Positions 30,926 through 38,019 are shown, counted from the first letter of the stretch. The stretch is DNA of 64,000 bases from Verrucomicrobiota bacterium (GCA_049510745.1 JBEKYR010000006.1:96001-160000); one strand, 5' to 3'. Notes: generated by a model from the sequence alone, not told the origin. Translations and numbers: made by a program.

Positions 30926-31606
30926 ATGTCCGCGCACGTTAAAGCTGAACCGGCAAAGCACAAAGTCTTCCTGGTCGATGATCATCCCCTGGTGCGCGAA
31001 TGGCTGACGCAGTTGATCCAGCGCGAAAGTGACTTGACTGTCTGCGGGGAAGCGGAGGACACGCAGGACGCGCTGGAAGGGATAGAAGAAAGCAAGCCGG
31101 ACATTGTCATTGCGGATATTTCCCTCAAGAGCACGCATGGACTGGAGTTGGTCAAAGACTTGCAGGCGCGGCATCCGGCCCTGCCGGTGCTGGTGCTCTC
31201 GATGCACGATGAATCCCTTTACGCCGAGCGCGTCTTGCGCGCGGGGGCCAAGGGTTACATTACCAAGCAGGAGGCGACCAAGAAGATTCTCATGGCCATT
31301 CGCCAGGTCATCGCCGGCCAAATCTACATCAGCGAGAAGATGGCCTCGCGCATGGTGCATAAAATGGTCCTGGGCCGCGCCGAGGACCAGAAGTCTCCCA
31401 TCGAGCGCCTGACGGACCGGGAACTGGAGGTCTTTCAACTCATTGGCCGCGGCCAGGGCACCCGGCGCATTGCGGCGGAGTTGCATCTGGGCATTAAAAC
31501 GGTCGAATCCTATCGCGCCCGCATCAAAGAAAAACTCAAGCTGGAGGACGGCACCCAATTGCTCCAACACGCCATCCAGTGGGTCCACAGTTTGCAGGAC
31601 CGTTAA
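30926..31606 (+). CDS. NarL/LuxR response regulator
   Basis: LVDDHP receiver; LTDRELEVF...TVESYR HTH. Confidence 0.95.
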   Translation: MSAHVKAEPAKHKVFLVDDHPLVREWLTQLIQRESDLTVCGEAEDTQDALEGIEESKPDIVIADISLKSTHGLELVKDLQARHPALPVLVLSMHDESLYAERVLRAGAKGYITKQEATKKILMAIRQVIAGQIYISEKMASRMVHKMVLGRAEDQKSPIERLTDRELEVFQLIGRGQGTRRIAAELHLGIKTVESYRARIKEKLKLEDGTQLLQHAIQWVHSLQDR

Positions 31607-34278
31607 TGCGATTGTTTCCGGCGTCGTTTGATCTCCGGTCCTTTGGCTGGCGGGAGTATTCCCGCCTGCTATTGGCTCTGTGCCTGCTCGGGGCGATGGC
31701 CTGGCTTTGCTGGAAGGGCGCGCGGGACCCGGCGATTCCTTTGCTGCCCCGGGGTCCGGCCGCTTGGATTGTCTATCCGTCCCCGCCCCAGGCCGGGATC
31801 AATCCGTGCCGCGAGGTGCCGGCTGATTTCGTGCGTCAATTCGTCCTGGCCGCCCCGCCCGCGCGGGCCGGACTTTCGTGGCGGGCCTTCCGCCGATCCG
31901 GGCTTTCCATCAATGGGGTCGCCCTGCCGCAGACCGCGCAACCGGGCGGGAATTGGAAAGACGTTTCCCGGATCAATGCGGCCCCGTATCTCCGCGCCGG
32001 AACCAATACTGTTGCCGCGACGGTCTGGAACGACAACGGCCCTCCCGCTTTAAGCCTCCGCCTGGAGATCGATGGCGCGCCGGTGGAAACGGACGAAGGT
32101 TGGAGCGTTTCCGTGGCAGGCTCTCTGTGGCATCCGGCCCGGCTGGCCTCGGCCACCGCGAAGTTTGGCGAGGGCAACCAGCTTCACGGTCTGGAAGAAA
32201 CCGGCCCCGCCCTGCGTGAAAGCTGGCCCCGGCTCTGTCTCTTTCTTCTTGTCGCCATTCTGCTGGCAGCCGGTCTGGAGTATGGGTTGGGACGGGCCGC
32301 GGGCGCCTCCGAACTCTGTTTTTGGCGCGGGCTTGCCCTTGGTCTGGCGGCGGTCTGGGTGCTGTTGTTCCTGCACAACGCGCCCCTGCTGGCGCGTCGC
32401 AGCGGCTTCGACGCTTCCGACCACCTCAAATACATCACCTATATTCAAGAGCACAGGGCGCTGCCCTCGCCGAAACAGGGATGGGAAATGTTTCAAGCCC
32501 CGCTCTATTATGTGTTGTCCGCCTGTCTGCTCGGCGTTTGCCATTGGCCGGCTTCACAGCCGGCGGGAATCCTGCTCCTGCGCGGGATGAGCGCGCTCGT
32601 CGGCGCCGTCAATGTCGCGCTGATTTTCGCCAGCCTGCGGCTGATCTTTCCCGGGCAATGGAAGAAACAGATGGCCGGGACGCTGCTGGCGGCATTTTTG
32701 CCGGCGCAAATTTGCCTTCTGCATTACACCACCAACGAGACGCTTGCGGCGACGCTGATGAGCGCGGCGTTTTATCTTTGTTTGCGCATTCTGCGCCGTC
32801 CGCCGCCCTCGGCGGCTCTTCATGCCGGATTGGGCTGCCTCCTCGGCCTGGCGCTGCTGGCCAAGGCCTCGGCGGTCGTTTTCCTGCCGGCTATTTTTGC
32901 GGCGCTGGCGGTAAAGCTGATTCTGGAGCGCCAGACCGCTCCGGGCCTCTGGGTGCGGAGCGCCGGCCTGGCCGGCTTGTGCCTGCTGCTGGTGGCGGGC
33001 TGGCGCTATGCGGAGGTGTGGCGGGATTTTGGCAACCCGCTCGCCGGCAATTGGGACGCGCGCGTCGTTTCTCCGTGGTGGCAGCCGCCGGGCTATCACA
33101 CCGCCGGCTATTTTTTCTCCTTTGGCCAGGCGCTGACCGCGCCTCTGTTCAGCGGGTTTCACAGTTTTTGGGATTGCTTCTACACCACTCTCTGGGGGGA
33201 CGGCCTGGCTGGGGGCCGGGTGACAACGGCGAGTCTGCCGCCGTGGAATTATCCCTTGATGGAGGCCGGTTTTCTCCTGGCTCTCGTGCCCTCGGCGTTG
33301 GTGTTGACAGGGCTGGCCGCCGCCGTGGGGCGATGCTTGCGGGAGCCGGACCTGGCGTTCCTCGTGCTGGTGGGCGCGGCCGGCTCCGCCCTCTTTGCCA
33401 TTCTCTTCATGAGCCTGAAATTGGCGTTCTATTCCCAAAGCAAATGTTTTTACGGATTGCCGGCGTTGCTTCCGCTTTGTGTTTGCGGCGTTCTGGGACT
33501 GGATTCTTGGGGGCGGCGCGGCCGGGGGGCGCGCGCTGTTTTGGGTGTGGCGCTTTTGCTGTGGCTCTGCAACGTCTATGCCTCCTTTTGGATCCGTCCG
33601 GGGTCCCTGCAAACCGAATTGTCCGCCGCCGCCGCCGAATTCTCTTACGGGGATGATGACCAGGCAACCCGGCGGGCGGTGGACCGGGTGTTGCGCACGG
33701 ACCCGGCCAATGAAACCGGGTTGATCATTGATGCCGTCCTCCATGGCCGGCGGGACGGCCCTGGGGCGGCGGCGGAGCGTTTGCGGCGGGCTTTGCGACC
33801 AGACCCGTGCAGCGGCGAAATCACGAAATACCTCGCGCCGTACATGCGCGACCTGGGCCAAACCAACGAGGCGCTGGCCCTGGCCGAACGCGCCTTTGCG
33901 CTCGAGCCGGAGAATGTCCAGGCTGCCCGGCAGGCCTGCGATCTGGCGATGGACCTGGGGAAGAACCAGGAGGCACTCGAAGCCGGCCGGGCGGCGCTGG
34001 GGCTGGACCCAGGCGAACCGGCGCTGCATTTCAATGTGGGCTGCGCCTGGGCCAATCTCCATCATCCGGCCGAGGCCATCCGGCAATTCCGGATGTTGCT
34101 GGCGCTCCCACCGCCCCCGGCGATGGAGGCGCAAGCCCATTTCTATCTGGGCCGATTGCTGGCAGGCGAACCGGGGGGAAAAGCGGAGGCGCTTTCCCAT
34201 TTCCAGGCCGCGCTCCGCCTGGACCCGGCCAACGCCGCCTGCCGCCAGGCCCTCGATAAGTTGCGCCCAGGCCCTTAG
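31606..34278 (+). CDS. GT-C (ArnT/PMT-like) membrane glycosyltransferase with C-terminal TPRs
   Basis: GFDASDH..YI, EMFQAPLYY, many TM helices, TPR repeats. Confidence 0.7.
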   Translation: MRLFPASFDLRSFGWREYSRLLLALCLLGAMAWLCWKGARDPAIPLLPRGPAAWIVYPSPPQAGINPCREVPADFVRQFVLAAPPARAGLSWRAFRRSGLSINGVALPQTAQPGGNWKDVSRINAAPYLRAGTNTVAATVWNDNGPPALSLRLEIDGAPVETDEGWSVSVAGSLWHPARLASATAKFGEGNQLHGLEETGPALRESWPRLCLFLLVAILLAAGLEYGLGRAAGASELCFWRGLALGLAAVWVLLFLHNAPLLARRSGFDASDHLKYITYIQEHRALPSPKQGWEMFQAPLYYVLSACLLGVCHWPASQPAGILLLRGMSALVGAVNVALIFASLRLIFPGQWKKQMAGTLLAAFLPAQICLLHYTTNETLAATLMSAAFYLCLRILRRPPPSAALHAGLGCLLGLALLAKASAVVFLPAIFAALAVKLILERQTAPGLWVRSAGLAGLCLLLVAGWRYAEVWRDFGNPLAGNWDARVVSPWWQPPGYHTAGYFFSFGQALTAPLFSGFHSFWDCFYTTLWGDGLAGGRVTTASLPPWNYPLMEAGFLLALVPSALVLTGLAAAVGRCLREPDLAFLVLVGAAGSALFAILFMSLKLAFYSQSKCFYGLPALLPLCVCGVLGLDSWGRRGRGARAVLGVALLLWLCNVYASFWIRPGSLQTELSAAAAEFSYGDDDQATRRAVDRVLRTDPANETGLIIDAVLHGRRDGPGAAAERLRRALRPDPCSGEITKYLAPYMRDLGQTNEALALAERAFALEPENVQAARQACDLAMDLGKNQEALEAGRAALGLDPGEPALHFNVGCAWANLHHPAEAIRQFRMLLALPPPPAMEAQAHFYLGRLLAGEPGGKAEALSHFQAALRLDPANAACRQALDKLRPGP

Positions 34279-34320: not shown

Positions 34321-35108
34321 TGTCCTCACCGCATAGGTGACACTTTGAGGAAGGTGCCCCGCTGCGCGGCGGAGCGGAGGCGAGCGTAGCGAGCCGTAGC
34401 GCAGCCGCGCAGCGGAGTCGGGCGACGGCGTCTTATTCCTTCGTTTTTGTGCGGTAAACGATGGCGCGAATACCTCCGCCGTCCGCATCGTGAAGCTCTC
34501 CCGCCAGGCACGGTCCAAAATACACTTCCCACTTGGCTGGCTGGATCCGTTTTAATCCGATCCGCTCTCGGCCAAAAGCATGTCCGACAAATCGGCTCCG
34601 GCCTTGCAGAAAAATCATGCCGTTGTTTTTGACGAGCCGGCTTTTCCATTCTGCCGGGTAGACCCAGGGCTTCAAACGCCCCGGCTGCCGACGCTTGCTT
34701 TTTCGGTAATGGTCCCCCGGCAGGCCCATGCCCAAAGCTTCGTGCGGGCGCTTATAATTATACTCCCGGCACCATTGCCGCGTCCTTCGTTTCTGACCCC
34801 GCAGATGCTGGGCCGCCGGATGCAAAGTCTCTGCTTTGTAAACCCGATGCATTTGTTCATGGGCTCCGTTCTGTTCCGGGTGGCCTGGCTCGATAAACTC
34901 AACGCCGATGCCTAATTTGACCCACCAAGCGCTCAACCGCGTCAGGCCCAAGGCACCGATGGAGCCAAAGGGAGACCCGTTATCGGCCCGGATGACCAGA
35001 GGGAGTCCATATTTTCGAAAAATGCCTTCAAAGGCCAAACGCGCCGCCGCCACCGTTTGCTGCGGCATCAAACTAAAATTTAAAATGTAGCGACTGGCCA
35101 AATCCCGC
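34321..35108 (-). mobile_element. IS481-family element remnant (right end present, left half deleted)
   Basis: rve core RDLASRY, IRADNGSPF, PEQNGAHEQMHR in 34433-35107; terminus TGTCCTCACCGCATAGGTGACACTTT at 34321. Confidence 0.85.
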
Positions 35109-35109
35109 A

Positions 35110-35171
35110 AAAACAAGCATTGGAAAAACAAGCATTGGTCAAAACAAGCATTGGGGCAAAACAAGCATTGG
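35110..35171 (+). repeat. AAAACAAGCATTGG x4 stutter
   Basis: Four tandem imperfect copies leading into the GGGGTC repeat. Confidence 0.9.
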
Positions 35172-35193
35172 GGTCAACTTCATACATTCAACA
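35170..35193 (+). repeat. Repeat A GGGGTCAACTTCATACATTCAACA (also inverted at 36591-36614, direct at 36999-37022)
   Basis: Three exact 24-nt copies. Confidence 0.95.
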
Positions 35194-35218
35194 ATTGAGG
35201 CAGACATTGGAAGACATT

Positions 35219-35242
35219 GGGGACGTAGTTAAACATTTAACA
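35219..35242 (+). repeat. Repeat B GGGGACGTAGTTAAACATTTAACA (inverted at 36320-36343, partial at 36352-36372)
   Basis: Exact inverted copies flank the transposase. Confidence 0.95.
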
Positions 35243-35286
35243 TTCCGCTTGACGCGGGTTGCGGGCGGGGATCAAGATGGCTGGAA

Positions 35287-36333
35287 ATGGCGCGGATTCC
35301 CCGAATCGAGCGGGCGGGAGCGTGGCATCATGTCACCGCCCGCGGCAATGAACGGCGTGCGATTTATCGTGATGATCGGGACCGGCGGCATTTCTGCGAC
35401 CTGCTCGGCCAGGTGGTGGAGCTTTTCCAGTGGCGGCTGCACGTTTACGTTTTAATGGACAATCATTTTCACCTGCTGGTGGAGACGCCGGAGCCGAATC
35501 TCGGTCGGGGCATGCAGTGGCTTAACACCAGTTATAGTGTTTGGTTTAACCGCCGGCATCAGCGGGCGGGACACTTGCTGCAGGGACGCTTCAAATCCAT
35601 TGTGGTCGATCCTTCCGGGTGGGGCTTGGAGTTGAGCCGCTACATCCATTTGAACCCGGTGCGGGTGGGAAGGCATGGGTTGAGCAAATCGGACCGGCAA
35701 GCGGACCGGGCGGGAGGGGGCGCCAAACCGACGGCTCAGGCGGTCAAAGGCCGCCTGGCTGAATTGCGCGGCTACCGGTGGAGTTCGTACCGTGCGTATA
35801 TCGGCTTGGCCTCGCCGCCCCTCTGGCTGGAACGGGAGAGGATTCTCCAGTTGGGCGGAGGCCGCGGGCAAGAGGCCGCCGTCCGCTATCGCCAGCACGT
35901 CGAGGAAGCGGTCCGGCAAGGGCTGGCGGTCAACCCGTGGCAGGCACTGCGCGACCGAACGCTGCTGGGAGGGGTGGACTTCGCGCGCCAACTGGCACGG
36001 GGGATCGGCCTTGGGAAAGGAGAAACGGCCAAGGCGGGAAGGCTGGCCAGGCCAACGGTGGCGCAAATCATCAGCGTGGTGGAAGCGGTGAAAGGGGAGA
36101 AATGGGAAAGCTTTCGAGACCGGCATGGAGATTGGGGCCGTGACGTGGTGTTCCACCTCGGACGCAAAGACTGGGCTTTGAAGCTGCGAGAACTGGGCGC
36201 GGCGGCCGGCGGGGTGGACGACGTTGCCGTCAGCATGGCTGCAAGACGAATCGCCAAGAGGGCAACGAATGACCCGGCGCTCTCCGCTGCTCTGAAGCAA
36301 AGCCGAGACAAACTACAATTGTTAAATGTTTAA
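35287..36333 (+). CDS. Y1 HUH transposase, RAYT-like, with C-terminal HTH
   Basis: HHVTARGNER, YVLMDNHFHLL (HUH), RYIHLNPVR, YRWSSY. Confidence 0.92.
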   Translation: MARIPRIERAGAWHHVTARGNERRAIYRDDRDRRHFCDLLGQVVELFQWRLHVYVLMDNHFHLLVETPEPNLGRGMQWLNTSYSVWFNRRHQRAGHLLQGRFKSIVVDPSGWGLELSRYIHLNPVRVGRHGLSKSDRQADRAGGGAKPTAQAVKGRLAELRGYRWSSYRAYIGLASPPLWLERERILQLGGGRGQEAAVRYRQHVEEAVRQGLAVNPWQALRDRTLLGGVDFARQLARGIGLGKGETAKAGRLARPTVAQIISVVEAVKGEKWESFRDRHGDWGRDVVFHLGRKDWALKLRELGAAAGGVDDVAVSMAARRIAKRATNDPALSAALKQSRDKLQLLNV

Positions 36334-36385
36334 CTACGTCCCCAATTTCCCTTAAATGTTTAACTACGTCCCGAATTTCCCTGCC

Positions 36386-36484
36386 AACTCGGCGGCGTAT
36401 TCGTATCTTGCCAATTCGCCGCTGGTGGGGCAGATTGTCTTCCAGCAAAGCGACGCGACGCGGATGACGACGAGCAAACAGTAG
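36386..36484 (+). pseudogene. Rhs/YD-repeat fragment
   Basis: NSAAYSYLANSPLVGQIVFQQSDATRMTTSKQ* resembles an Rhs core segment (recalled similarity). Confidence 0.55.
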
Positions 36485-36653
36485 AATGCTTAGATTTGAC
36501 CACAAATTTCGATTCCCATAGTGGAAACCGATGCTCTTGAAGCAAAACGCGCGGAACGCTGCATCGCTCGGCTGAACAAAATCGGCAAAATGTTGAATGT
36601 ATGAAGTTGACCCCAATTCGTTCATTTCCACGACTTGAAGTGGGAAAGATCGG

Positions 36654-36926
36654 TTGCCAATGATGACTATGGGCAAGTACGCGCTCGAATCGGTAATGTT
36701 GATAGCTTGGGTAATTCTCGCCTTAGTGTTTGCATTTAAGCTGAAGCGACCGAGGATTGTTTTTTTAGCTAATGCCGCGACAGCGGCGCTAATTGTTGTC
36801 ATCACCATGATTCGCCACGGCCCTTTGATCATGGGTGGAGTGATTCATGTATTGTGTTGCGGCTTTTATGGCATAGTGCTATTTTACCTTGTTAAGGCAG
36901 TGCGAAAGCCGAGTCCCCATTCATAG
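36654..36926 (+). CDS. Small AT-rich 3-TM orphan protein (immunity-like)
   Basis: Three hydrophobic segments; lower GC; lies between two A repeats. Confidence 0.55.
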   Translation: MPMMTMGKYALESVMLIAWVILALVFAFKLKRPRIVFLANAATAALIVVITMIRHGPLIMGGVIHVLCCGFYGIVLFYLVKAVRKPSPHS

Positions 36927-37033
36927 CGGCTGTTTGCAATTGTCGCAAGTCCTGGTGTCCTTCTCGCCGACCTGTAGCAAGCATTGGTAGCAAGCATTGG
37001 GGTCAACTTCATACATTCAACAATTGGGTTGAC

Positions 37034-37170
37034 GTGAACGGCAATGGGCCGTCGTACAGCTACACGGCGGCGGGACGGCTGGCGTCGAGGACGTGGGCGC
37101 AGGGCACGAATACAACCTATACCTACGGGACGGGGGGCGACCTCACGGCCGTGAATTATAACGACGGTTC
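37034..37170 (+). pseudogene. Rhs/YD-repeat fragment
   Basis: GPSYSYTAAGRLASRTWAQGTNTTYTYGTGGDLTAVNYNDG: two YxYxxxGxL repeats. Confidence 0.75.
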
Positions 37171-38019
37171 AAAGAGCGTCGCCGCGTCCTCCGACGCGGG
37201 GAGAAAGCGCCCGCCGGCGAAACAATCCTCGACTTGACTGCCGTTCCAGCGGCGCAGCCGGTAAAGTTGGGCGAACATAAACGGCGGGGCGGCCTTTCCC
37301 TGGCCGCCAACCAGTTCCGCCCCGCGCCGCACGTTGTCCTGCATCCACGCCGGAATGAGCAGGTGATACGGGTTGCGCTTGACTTCCCCGACGTGGAAGG
37401 AAGTCGCCGCCACCAAGTCGGCCGCGTCCCGGTCCGTGTATTCGACCAACACATTGGGCGAAGTCATCTGGCCCCAGAATTCGGTTTCGACCAGATAACA
37501 ACTCCCGGCGTCCGCCGCCCGCAAGGCGTCCATCACCAGGAAATGCGTGCCGATGTGCGTGCTGTTCCAATCCAGTTCATGCGGGAAAAAAATCGTTCTT
37601 GGCCGGTGTTTCTTCAAGAGAGCGGCGATCACCCCGACTTTTTCCGACCACGCCCGGGGGTCCTTGGCGCGAGTGATGGGGCCAACAGCGTCCAATCCGC
37701 CGGGCACGGTGAGTTCGAGACCGAAGCCGAGAAAGTTGCAGGCGGTTTGCAATTCCTGCCAGCGGCCGCCCTTCCGTTTCGGCAGGCTGCCGAGCGTGAC
37801 CGCAACGTCGATGACGCGCCATCGGCTCTCGCGCAACAAGCGCAACGCCAGTCCGCCGGCAATGGTTTCGTCATCGGGATGCGGCGCGAAAAACAGCGCG
37901 GTCAGGGCGTCGGGAGCCGGGACGGGCCGCGAGGCGGGCGGCATTCCGCCCAATGGCAGCGACCTGCCCTCGGTGACGATGCGGGAGAACTCGGAGACCA
38001 GATTCAAGTAGGGATTCAT
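37156..38019 (-). CDS. PIG-L family N-acetylglucosaminyl deacetylase
   Basis: FAPHPDDE, PHELDWNSTH. Confidence 0.9.
   Translation of the reverse strand: MNPYLNLVSEFSRIVTEGRSLPLGGMPPASRPVPAPDALTALFFAPHPDDETIAGGLALRLLRESRWRVIDVAVTLGSLPKRKGGRWQELQTACNFLGFGLELTVPGGLDAVGPITRAKDPRAWSEKVGVIAALLKKHRPRTIFFPHELDWNSTHIGTHFLVMDALRAADAGSCYLVETEFWGQMTSPNVLVEYTDRDAADLVAATSFHVGEVKRNPYHLLIPAWMQDNVRRGAELVGGQGKAAPPFMFAQLYRLRRWNGSQVEDCFAGGRFLPASEDAATLFEPSL

Follow-up and report, generated by a model that had tools for sequence, protein, structure and literature searches.

A TIRYT transposase and its 24-nt repeats beside Rhs fragments in a Verrucomicrobiota bacterium, and repeat-headed Rhs toxin arrays in its relatives

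A stretch of 64,000 nucleotides (nt) from a Verrucomicrobiota bacterium (GCA_049510745.1 JBEKYR010000006.1:96001-160000), the whole of which we call the window, carries a gene for a Y1-HUH transposase surrounded by 24-nt repeats and by two fragments of Rhs genes. Judged from motifs and predicted fold, the gene is an intact TIRYT, the enzyme of the elements called TIRtrons. In related bacteria repeats of this kind head tandem toxin-immunity units, and therefore the enzyme is likely one of the routes by which toxin-immunity pairs are added. Positions are counted from the first letter of the stretch, which lies on contig C6 of a genome of 5.6 Mb and 60% GC. This source genome is labelled G000, other G numbers are related genomes, L numbers are loci and C numbers are contigs. 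The named records among the closest relatives are mostly Verrucomicrobiota metagenome-assembled genomes, and the DNA of the window is present in peat metagenome runs, with no RNA run among the matches listed. The locus contains the following features:

34436–35068, minus strand: remnant of an IS481-family transposase, C-terminal half only (NCBIfam transpos_IS481, E 8.6e-19, profile positions 167-282 of 284), broken off beside the repeat cluster
35107–35169, plus strand: stutter of ~13-nt flank units ending in GCATT plus the first 2–4 nt of the repeat
35170–35193, plus strand: repeat A, 5'-type end of the sister element A, with only 6 nt of interior behind it
35219–35242, plus strand: repeat B, the intact TIRtron's left terminal inverted repeat, preceded by a short stutter
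35287–36333, plus strand: TIRYT gene, 348-aa Y1-HUH transposase with a DnaA domain IV-like C-terminal domain
36320–36343, minus strand: repeat B, right terminal inverted repeat, containing the transposase stop codon
36352–36381, minus strand: tandem copy, 30 nt long, of the right B end with 8 nt of flank
36383–36481, plus strand: Rhs fragment 1, residues ~1579–1611 of a 2207-aa reference (related pieces at C8, C36 and C81)
36480–36503, minus strand: degenerate repeat of a third family, C (21/24 match)
36517–36614, plus strand: 3' tail of the sister transposase gene of element A (98% over 98 nt to the C31/C8 copy)
36591–36614, minus strand: repeat A closing the sister-gene tail
36654–36926, plus strand: low-GC open reading frame (ORF) for an 88–90-aa three-helix membrane protein, between outward-facing A repeats
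36974–37022, plus strand: stutter and repeat A (36999–37022), a 5'-type end, 72 nt behind the membrane ORF and on the same strand as the ORF
37034–37168, plus strand: Rhs fragment 2 with YD repeats, reference residues ~1444–1490, beginning at a GTG that lies in subterminal DNA of the repeat
37156–38019, minus strand: host PIG-L deacetylase gene, its last codons from antisense Rhs DNA; the right border of the island

The initial annotation of this DNA had named the A and B repeats, the HUH gene and the Rhs pieces, and all of them lie in the order and at the coordinates that it gave, with the stop codon inside the right B repeat. Its partial B repeat at 36352 turned out to be the 30-nt tandem copy of the B end. 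The C-type repeat at 36480–36503, the sister-gene tail at 36517–36614 and the stutters ahead of both plus-strand A copies are additions to it. The A and B repeats had been described as nested. The DNA at 36517–36614 belongs to the tail of another transposase gene, which makes the outer A pair what is left of a deleted sister element. An intact sister element A lies on C31:87573-87688 and C8:1-1090, two contig ends that overlap by 66 nt, and its protein is 53% identical to the window transposase. Three element families have thus piled up here to give the nesting: a whole B element, a deleted A sister and a degenerate C repeat.

A full-length Rhs from a relative aligns with both Rhs fragments (E 8e-12 for fragment 1 and 4e-18 for fragment 2). 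When tested with profile models, the second reaches Pfam RHS_repeat and TIGR01643 and the first reaches neither. The right border is an illegitimate fusion, in which the Rhs DNA of fragment 2 is joined onto the stop and 3' end of the PIG-L gene. The window does not hold an Rhs toxin-immunity module, which would have a core with PxxxxDPxG, a toxin tip and the cognate immunity gene: it offers these two short fragments only, and the TIGR03696 hits in the genome fall only on C12 and C25, the two intact Rhs genes. The window is a decayed relic and no working toxin locus. The three-helix ORF had been called immunity-like. Its sole homolog match is itself, it gave no usable Atlas family, and compared with 130 genes found behind Rhs tips its best E is 0.017, so that the name is not confirmed. 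In size and helices it resembles 16 of these 130 genes, and its start codon is where a 15-codon frame ends. It may be regarded as a candidate that stands in the position of an immunity gene. The right half of the window (membrane ORF, stutter, repeat, GTG and Rhs piece) has the form of a repeat-headed array junction.

The transposase matches Pfam Y1_Tnp (E 3e-9) and has the motifs NHFHL at residue 59 and YIHLNP at residue 119. For the C-terminal tail, a profile search against PDB sequences finds DnaA structures (E 4e-6). In the predicted model (14 homologs, pLDDT 80) the best fold match is 4er8, the TnpA-REP, followed by the TnpA of IS608 and by ISDra2, and the tail superimposes on DnaA domain IV with a TM score of 0.83 by target. 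By motifs and architecture we place the enzyme in TnpA-Y1 subclass 2.1, as defined in the available text of PMC6006769 (Table 1): it has the NH[YF]H and Y[IV]HLNP motifs, a helix-turn-helix (HTH) of the Bac_DnaA_C type and GGGG-led terminal inverted repeats. The B repeats form an identical 24-nt pair flanking the gene. The start of repeat B, GGGGACGT, is one position off the published consensus GGGG[AT][CG]A[CG], and one A position likewise departs slightly from it or extends it. A homolog of the transposase is present in 41 of 61 related genomes, and a 24-nt inverted repeat pair accompanies the gene in 62 of 79 homologous loci. We rejected the REPtrons (RAYT groups 2–3) because there are no GT[AG]G-footed hairpins (13 ends fold like shuffles) and NF047646 scores 51.6 against a cut-off of 80. 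The IS200/IS605 family was rejected since the motif is YIHLNP and not Y---Q and the ends are identical inverted 24-mers without hairpins. An integron was rejected since the enzyme is HUH-Y1, not a tyrosine recombinase, and the unit borders vary over 2–14 nt.

In the source genome the exact 24-mer of A occurs 26 times and that of B 7 times (chance expectation for exact A is ~1e-8); the repeats of sister element A have about 34 occurrences, and family C has 11 or more copies. A hand-made list contains at least four repeat families (A–D) in 31 clusters. The 24-mers showed no strong folding at any of 13 ends tested (all z above −1.9). Hairpin ends were thus rejected, as these sequences fold no better than shuffles, and the earlier statement that the repeats are not hairpin-like stands. 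The genome also holds non-autonomous mini-elements of 75–490 bp between repeat pairs (C2:182697-182771, C2:184080-184154, C81:3085-3159, C4:262-362 and C3:~110-601). At C76:92-292 five tandem A repeats with 15–30-nt spacers are joined into a gene that they shorten.

The junctions of the repeats proved informative. The outer flank is constant for each end type: GCATT at 22 of 22 A 5'-type ends and CGANTT at 10 of 10 A 3'-type ends, and in the relatives the outer flanks are family-specific. Between the native DNA and the repeat lie 2–40 extra nt in 59 of 66 junction rows; the remaining 7 match another repeat family or a second repeat copy by eye, and two of the rows are duplicates. This indicates that the flank is carried with the end and mostly not targeted. 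Stutters stand at 21 of 66 repeat copies compared to 15 of 2350 control GGGG(A/T)C sites in the source genome. Exact tandem duplications running over the outer edge of the repeat begin 2–14 nt outside GGGG in 55 of 56 cases, with variable ends, periods of 8 to 477 nt and microhomology of 0–1 nt in 43 of the 56. The search needed 4 shared flank bases, so the lower bound of this range is set by the method; the upper bound holds, as 14 of the 15 longest duplications start within 14 nt when 4.7 are expected. At L102 a 1148-bp near-perfect copy begins 5 nt ahead of a repeat. Two tandem duplications in this locus (L102:8005-10672), one of 367 and one of 1148 bp, are anchored at repeats, and the longer unit stops inside an apparent ruvC gene (by eye). 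The initial annotation had supposed joining at GGGG itself, and the joints usually lie 2–14 nt outside it. Target-site duplications and empty sites were not found in the source genome, where the empty-site motif occurs at most once. A guide-like pairing of flank and subterminal DNA, looked for by eye, was inconsistent between end types and was rejected.

We next describe the Rhs loci of the relatives. We trained a weight matrix, with Rhs ignored, on repeats that flank transposase genes (36 repeats; at the threshold used, 82 hits in the source genome against 8 in a reversed control). It was applied to 73 loci picked by the Rhs core alone from the best 80 of 610 hits. Past the toxin stop, 33 repeats lie on the same strand and 4 on the opposite one. 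The same-strand repeats, 1 of which is probably false, have a peak of 10 at 500–1000 bp, just past the immunity gene; several stand 7–70 nt past the stop of the gene behind the tip, among the matches listed. Pieces of transposase genes downstream follow the same rule (same strand at 11 loci, opposite at 1). A further count, in which the first repeat past Rhs faces away (11:0), was discounted because any whole element would give the same result; the argument uses the 33:4 total, the orientation of the transposase pieces and the position of the repeats at junctions. We then considered 20 arrays with two or more cores, chosen by eye from ~27 for Rhs only. A same-strand repeat lies within 61 nt of the start of the next module at 4 of 24 junctions in 3 genomes, when 0.33 is expected from the local density (p 1.5e-4). 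Adding 16 junctions from loci seen earlier, some of them seen because of their repeats, gives 10 of 40 (43 minus 3 duplicates). In five Acidobacteriota genomes, chosen for carrying the transposase, a same-strand repeat lies downstream of 5 of 20 Rhs cores and an opposite one of none (0/20). Thus the Rhs association seen in the window recurs in the relatives, and the repeats, dispersed and of several families, are more than the ends of one insertion sequence.

Some relatives have arrays in which each unit consists of a repeat, a half-Rhs, a differing toxin tip and a differing downstream gene. In G017, six units are homologous from 8–11 nt before the repeat (85–96% identity), and the six toxin tips printed from these loci are all different. 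Here the repeat provides an in-frame ATG for the half-Rhs genes, an Rhs core is found no more than 2 kb away from 4 of 15 clusters of this repeat family (0.25 expected), and the genome also has an intact transposase with the same repeat family (L030). In G022 Rhs modules are headed by four different repeat families. There is one downstream gene that meets the repeat at two different places, and at L261 an array with different tips stands beside a close homolog of the window enzyme. In the source genome, all five orphan Rhs fragments touch repeat DNA, the C36 case being a short remnant identified by eye. Near the homologous transposases Rhs is enriched (within 5 kb at 6 of 79 loci, 0.5 expected).

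Several observations weigh against a link between the enzyme and the Rhs arrays. No Rhs is found near 73 of the 79 homologous loci or in 27 of the 31 repeat clusters of the source genome (it is nearby in 4); the enrichment of Rhs near the homologous transposases thus concerns a small minority of loci. The repeat neighbours, scanned in 71 proteins taken mostly out of a list of 91, are mixed: prepilin, HEAT, LamG/Ig, GmrSD, Eco57I, PemK and housekeeping genes. Transposase genes lie within 3 kb of an Rhs core in 7 of 82 cases and IS110 genes in 2 of 64 (Fisher p 0.30, among the 149 of 182 core matches listed), and because this IS110 control is also near Rhs we discounted proximity at the level of genes. 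At 20 of the 24 array junctions there is no repeat at the module start, the junctions examined in G012, G016, G036, G040, G046, G055 and G060 all lack one, and G046, with its 28 Rhs cores, gave no transposase hit. Neither the co-presence of the two across genomes (26/41 vs 8/20, p 0.10) nor the presence of a repeat where truncated Rhs genes break at the 5' side, compared with full ones (7/43 vs 0/12, p 0.33), is significant. The units of G017 could descend from a single repeat-Rhs fusion. The two intact Rhs genes of the source genome gave no tblastn match to the five orphan fragments and so are not their source, and no shared cleavage dinucleotide was found at the duplication joints. Some DNA is common to the Rhs-chosen set and the relatives, and the loci share genomes and kin, so that they are not independent and the p-values overstate.

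Duplications that start just outside the repeat and have variable ends fit a nick, an extension and an attack on a protein-bound end. In such a scheme the DnaA-like tail, a domain that is present in the protein, would bind the repeat. The Y1 core would nick ~2–14 nt 5' of GGGG, the position suggested by the junctions, and hold the 5' end, by a chemistry borrowed from the HUH family. A host polymerase would then extend the free 3' end through the repeat, and the growing 3' end would attack the protein-bound end at a variable point, which would yield the tandem duplications that are seen. Where a repeat heads a half-Rhs, the growing strand may switch template in the conserved Rhs core. The foreign toxin tip and immunity gene would then be copied before re-joining, giving the order repeat-halfRhs-tip2-imm2-repeat-halfRhs-tip1-imm1; arrays of this order are seen, and the route to them is our reconstruction. 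With moderate confidence, we propose from the junctions that TIRYT may act by nicking, extension and religation, stamping out solo repeats and, at Rhs loci, adding toxin-immunity units before the old ones. With like confidence we take this activity to be general, with one-ended gene capture as a presumed consequence, and its use at Rhs loci to be limited to some lineages. We suggest only tentatively that the orphan Rhs arrays of Verrucomicrobia and Acidobacteria from soil and peat have their helper enzyme in TIRYT. A half-Rhs with a repeat fused to it would then offer a reusable entry site, at which homology in the Rhs core would anchor the foreign pair and the HUH enzyme would seal the non-homologous end.

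These features can be read otherwise. Selfish TIRtrons and solo repeats may pile up in plastic low-GC regions, and a few chance repeat-Rhs fusions may then be spread by ordinary homologous and illegitimate recombination; the enzyme would play no part in adding toxin units. The mixed neighbours of the repeats, the landing of IS110 near Rhs, the lack of repeats in most arrays, and the similarity of the G017 units with their one common fusion point all agree with this. However, it does not explain why unit homology starts 8–11 nt before the repeat, in the same range as the duplications, why solo ends facing away from the immunity gene are in such excess (33:4), or how four repeat families came to head modules in one genome and one gene came to be joined at two points. 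We consider it unlikely, though it deserves to be taken seriously.

The strong form of the initial annotation, a dedicated shuffler whose enzyme clade was domesticated to invert or excise Rhs and immunity modules at nested repeats, draws on the contact of all orphan fragments with repeat DNA, on the enrichment of Rhs within 5 kb of the transposase and on the in-frame ATG of G017. Most homologous loci and most clusters are nevertheless free of Rhs, the nesting is built from different element families, and the in-frame ATG is not general. The contigs of four peat runs, which drop rare variants, list no circle or inversion joints, a result that has no weight either way. We regard such a shuffler as highly improbable: the system is neither new nor dedicated to Rhs, belonging to the published TIRYT/TIRtron family, and what survives of the suggested capture of Rhs and immunity modules is that repeat-headed unit arrays exist in relatives. 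Precise targeting as in IS608, with the ends joined exactly at GGGG to a short host target and the other junction features arising by later decay, would account for flanks that are fixed per end type and family-specific in the relatives, and the flank at L105 reads as native Rhs sequence. The extra nt between the native copy and the repeat indicate, in contrast, that the flank travels with the end; two ends with an identical 24-mer differ in their flanks, and the empty-site motif is nearly absent from the genome. This explanation appears, if anything, a shade less probable still.

The element family itself is known. The names TIRtron and TIRYT (Di Nocera et al. 2013, PMC3733652), TnpA-Y1 subclass 2.1 (Quentin et al. 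2018, PMC6006769) and group 1 RAYT (Bertels et al. 2017, PMC5581495) can be equated from the available text of these papers, which describes GGGG-led inverted repeats, a DnaA-type tail and scattered repeat copies, and reports subclass 2.1 in 14.9% of the species sampled (PMC6006769). The window element shares with the published ones the Y1-HUH core motifs, the DnaA-type HTH tail, GGGG-led inverted repeats without REP hairpins, and single, paired and clustered copies. In the same available text no assay, substrate, cut site or role is reported, and the accounts there are without a mechanism, a junction analysis or a link to Rhs; the carried flank, the stutters and the repeat-headed toxin arrays are what differs here. 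A full-text search, with subscription journals mostly outside it, did not find a TIRYT-Rhs array link in print, and a term search of a 2026 Rhs preprint found no mention of a transposase.

The closest fold relative of the enzyme model, TnpA-REP of the REP-BIME system of E. coli (Ton-Hoang et al., PMC3333891; PDB 4er8), is described in the available text as cleaving at a variable distance on either side of the repeat, and a nick-extend-religate model has been proposed there for tandem BIME growth and gene capture. TnpA-REP needs a GTAG-footed hairpin and a CT dinucleotide, whereas here the ends fold weakly, no dinucleotide is common and the enzyme carries an additional DNA-binding domain. Orphan Rhs and type VI secretion system effector-immunity arrays (Kirchberger et al. 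2017, PMC5361080) resemble ours in that a new tip and immunity gene enter before the old ones, with core homology as the anchor. The accessible part of that paper explains them by homology-facilitated illegitimate recombination and says that evidence for an integrase-like helper is lacking; here, by contrast, some of the arrays have their non-homologous joint at a fixed place, a transposase repeat. Enzymes of the same subclass, as full genes and 3' fragments, occur among the hypervariable prochlorosin genes (Laurenceau et al., bioRxiv 10.1101/2020.03.09.984088), for which a related role of the subclass was proposed and the causal claim then withdrawn by the authors. No inverted repeats were found there, in contrast to the explicit repeats and junctions described here. 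The IS200/IS605 elements (IS608, ISDra2) and IS91/ISCR share the HUH chemistry and the lack of target duplication, but their ends are non-identical, with hairpins or ori/ter, and here one 24-mer stands inverted at both ends. One-ended capture of adjoining DNA is known from IS91/ISCR and is mentioned in PMC3333891.

Two questions meet at these repeats: TIRYT is widespread with no role reported in the text available, and orphan Rhs strings need a non-homologous joint for which no enzyme is known (PMC5361080, in the part available). The junctions make a prediction, namely a nick 2–14 nt outside GGGG and re-joining to a variable 3' end, and the intact enzyme and repeats of the window are reagents for testing it. 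If it were true, it would add a new route of gene capture, along with an enzyme able to link a defined end to variable DNA. If TIRYT were also the helper of orphan Rhs arrays, a single-strand transposase would build an integron-like stack of toxin cassettes, with the start codon coming from the repeat in some lineages.

In G002 and G008 the response-regulator gene (30926–31606 in the window) directly adjoins the PIG-L gene, and in G001 the regulator occurs together with the glycosyltransferase-TPR gene; the repeat-Rhs block is thus lineage-specific. A large TPR-repeat membrane protein beside the regulator (31606–34278) is there in G001 and missing at that spot in G002 and G008. Contigs from four peat metagenome runs span pieces of the window, and the stutter at 35107–35169 is spanned by single contigs in runs X2–X4. 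In run X3 one contig departs from the window at 35109, beside the IS481 remnant. Every joint listed in the run contigs corresponds, in our comparison, to another repeat copy elsewhere in the genome. A short inverted repeat between the TPR gene and the IS481 remnant (34340–34420) has a depth spike in all four runs, which points to a multi-copy element.

Other loci gave separate observations. At L252:3695-8656 more than 20 repeat copies surround several gene tails and two complete transposase genes, and one Rhs piece lies among them. Among 43 5'-truncated Rhs genes, 13 break at reference residues 1565–1596 (L125, L139, L167, L171, L189 and others), the same stretch as the window fragment. The intact Rhs gene at C12:139344-146130 of the source genome ends in a proline-rich tip and is followed by a 475-aa low-GC gene and then by a stuttered C-type repeat 79 nt past the stop of that gene. 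IS110-family genes lie ~0.6–2.5 kb from TIRYT genes in five places (G016 C5:713590-716037, C1:2841491 and C1:1115731; G011 C46:98264 and C46:147621), and IS110 may target TIRYT repeats. Finally, the source genome has other GGGG-led families, one palindromic with ~58 copies (GGGGAG) and one with 12 copies (GGGGTGAACACCCC).

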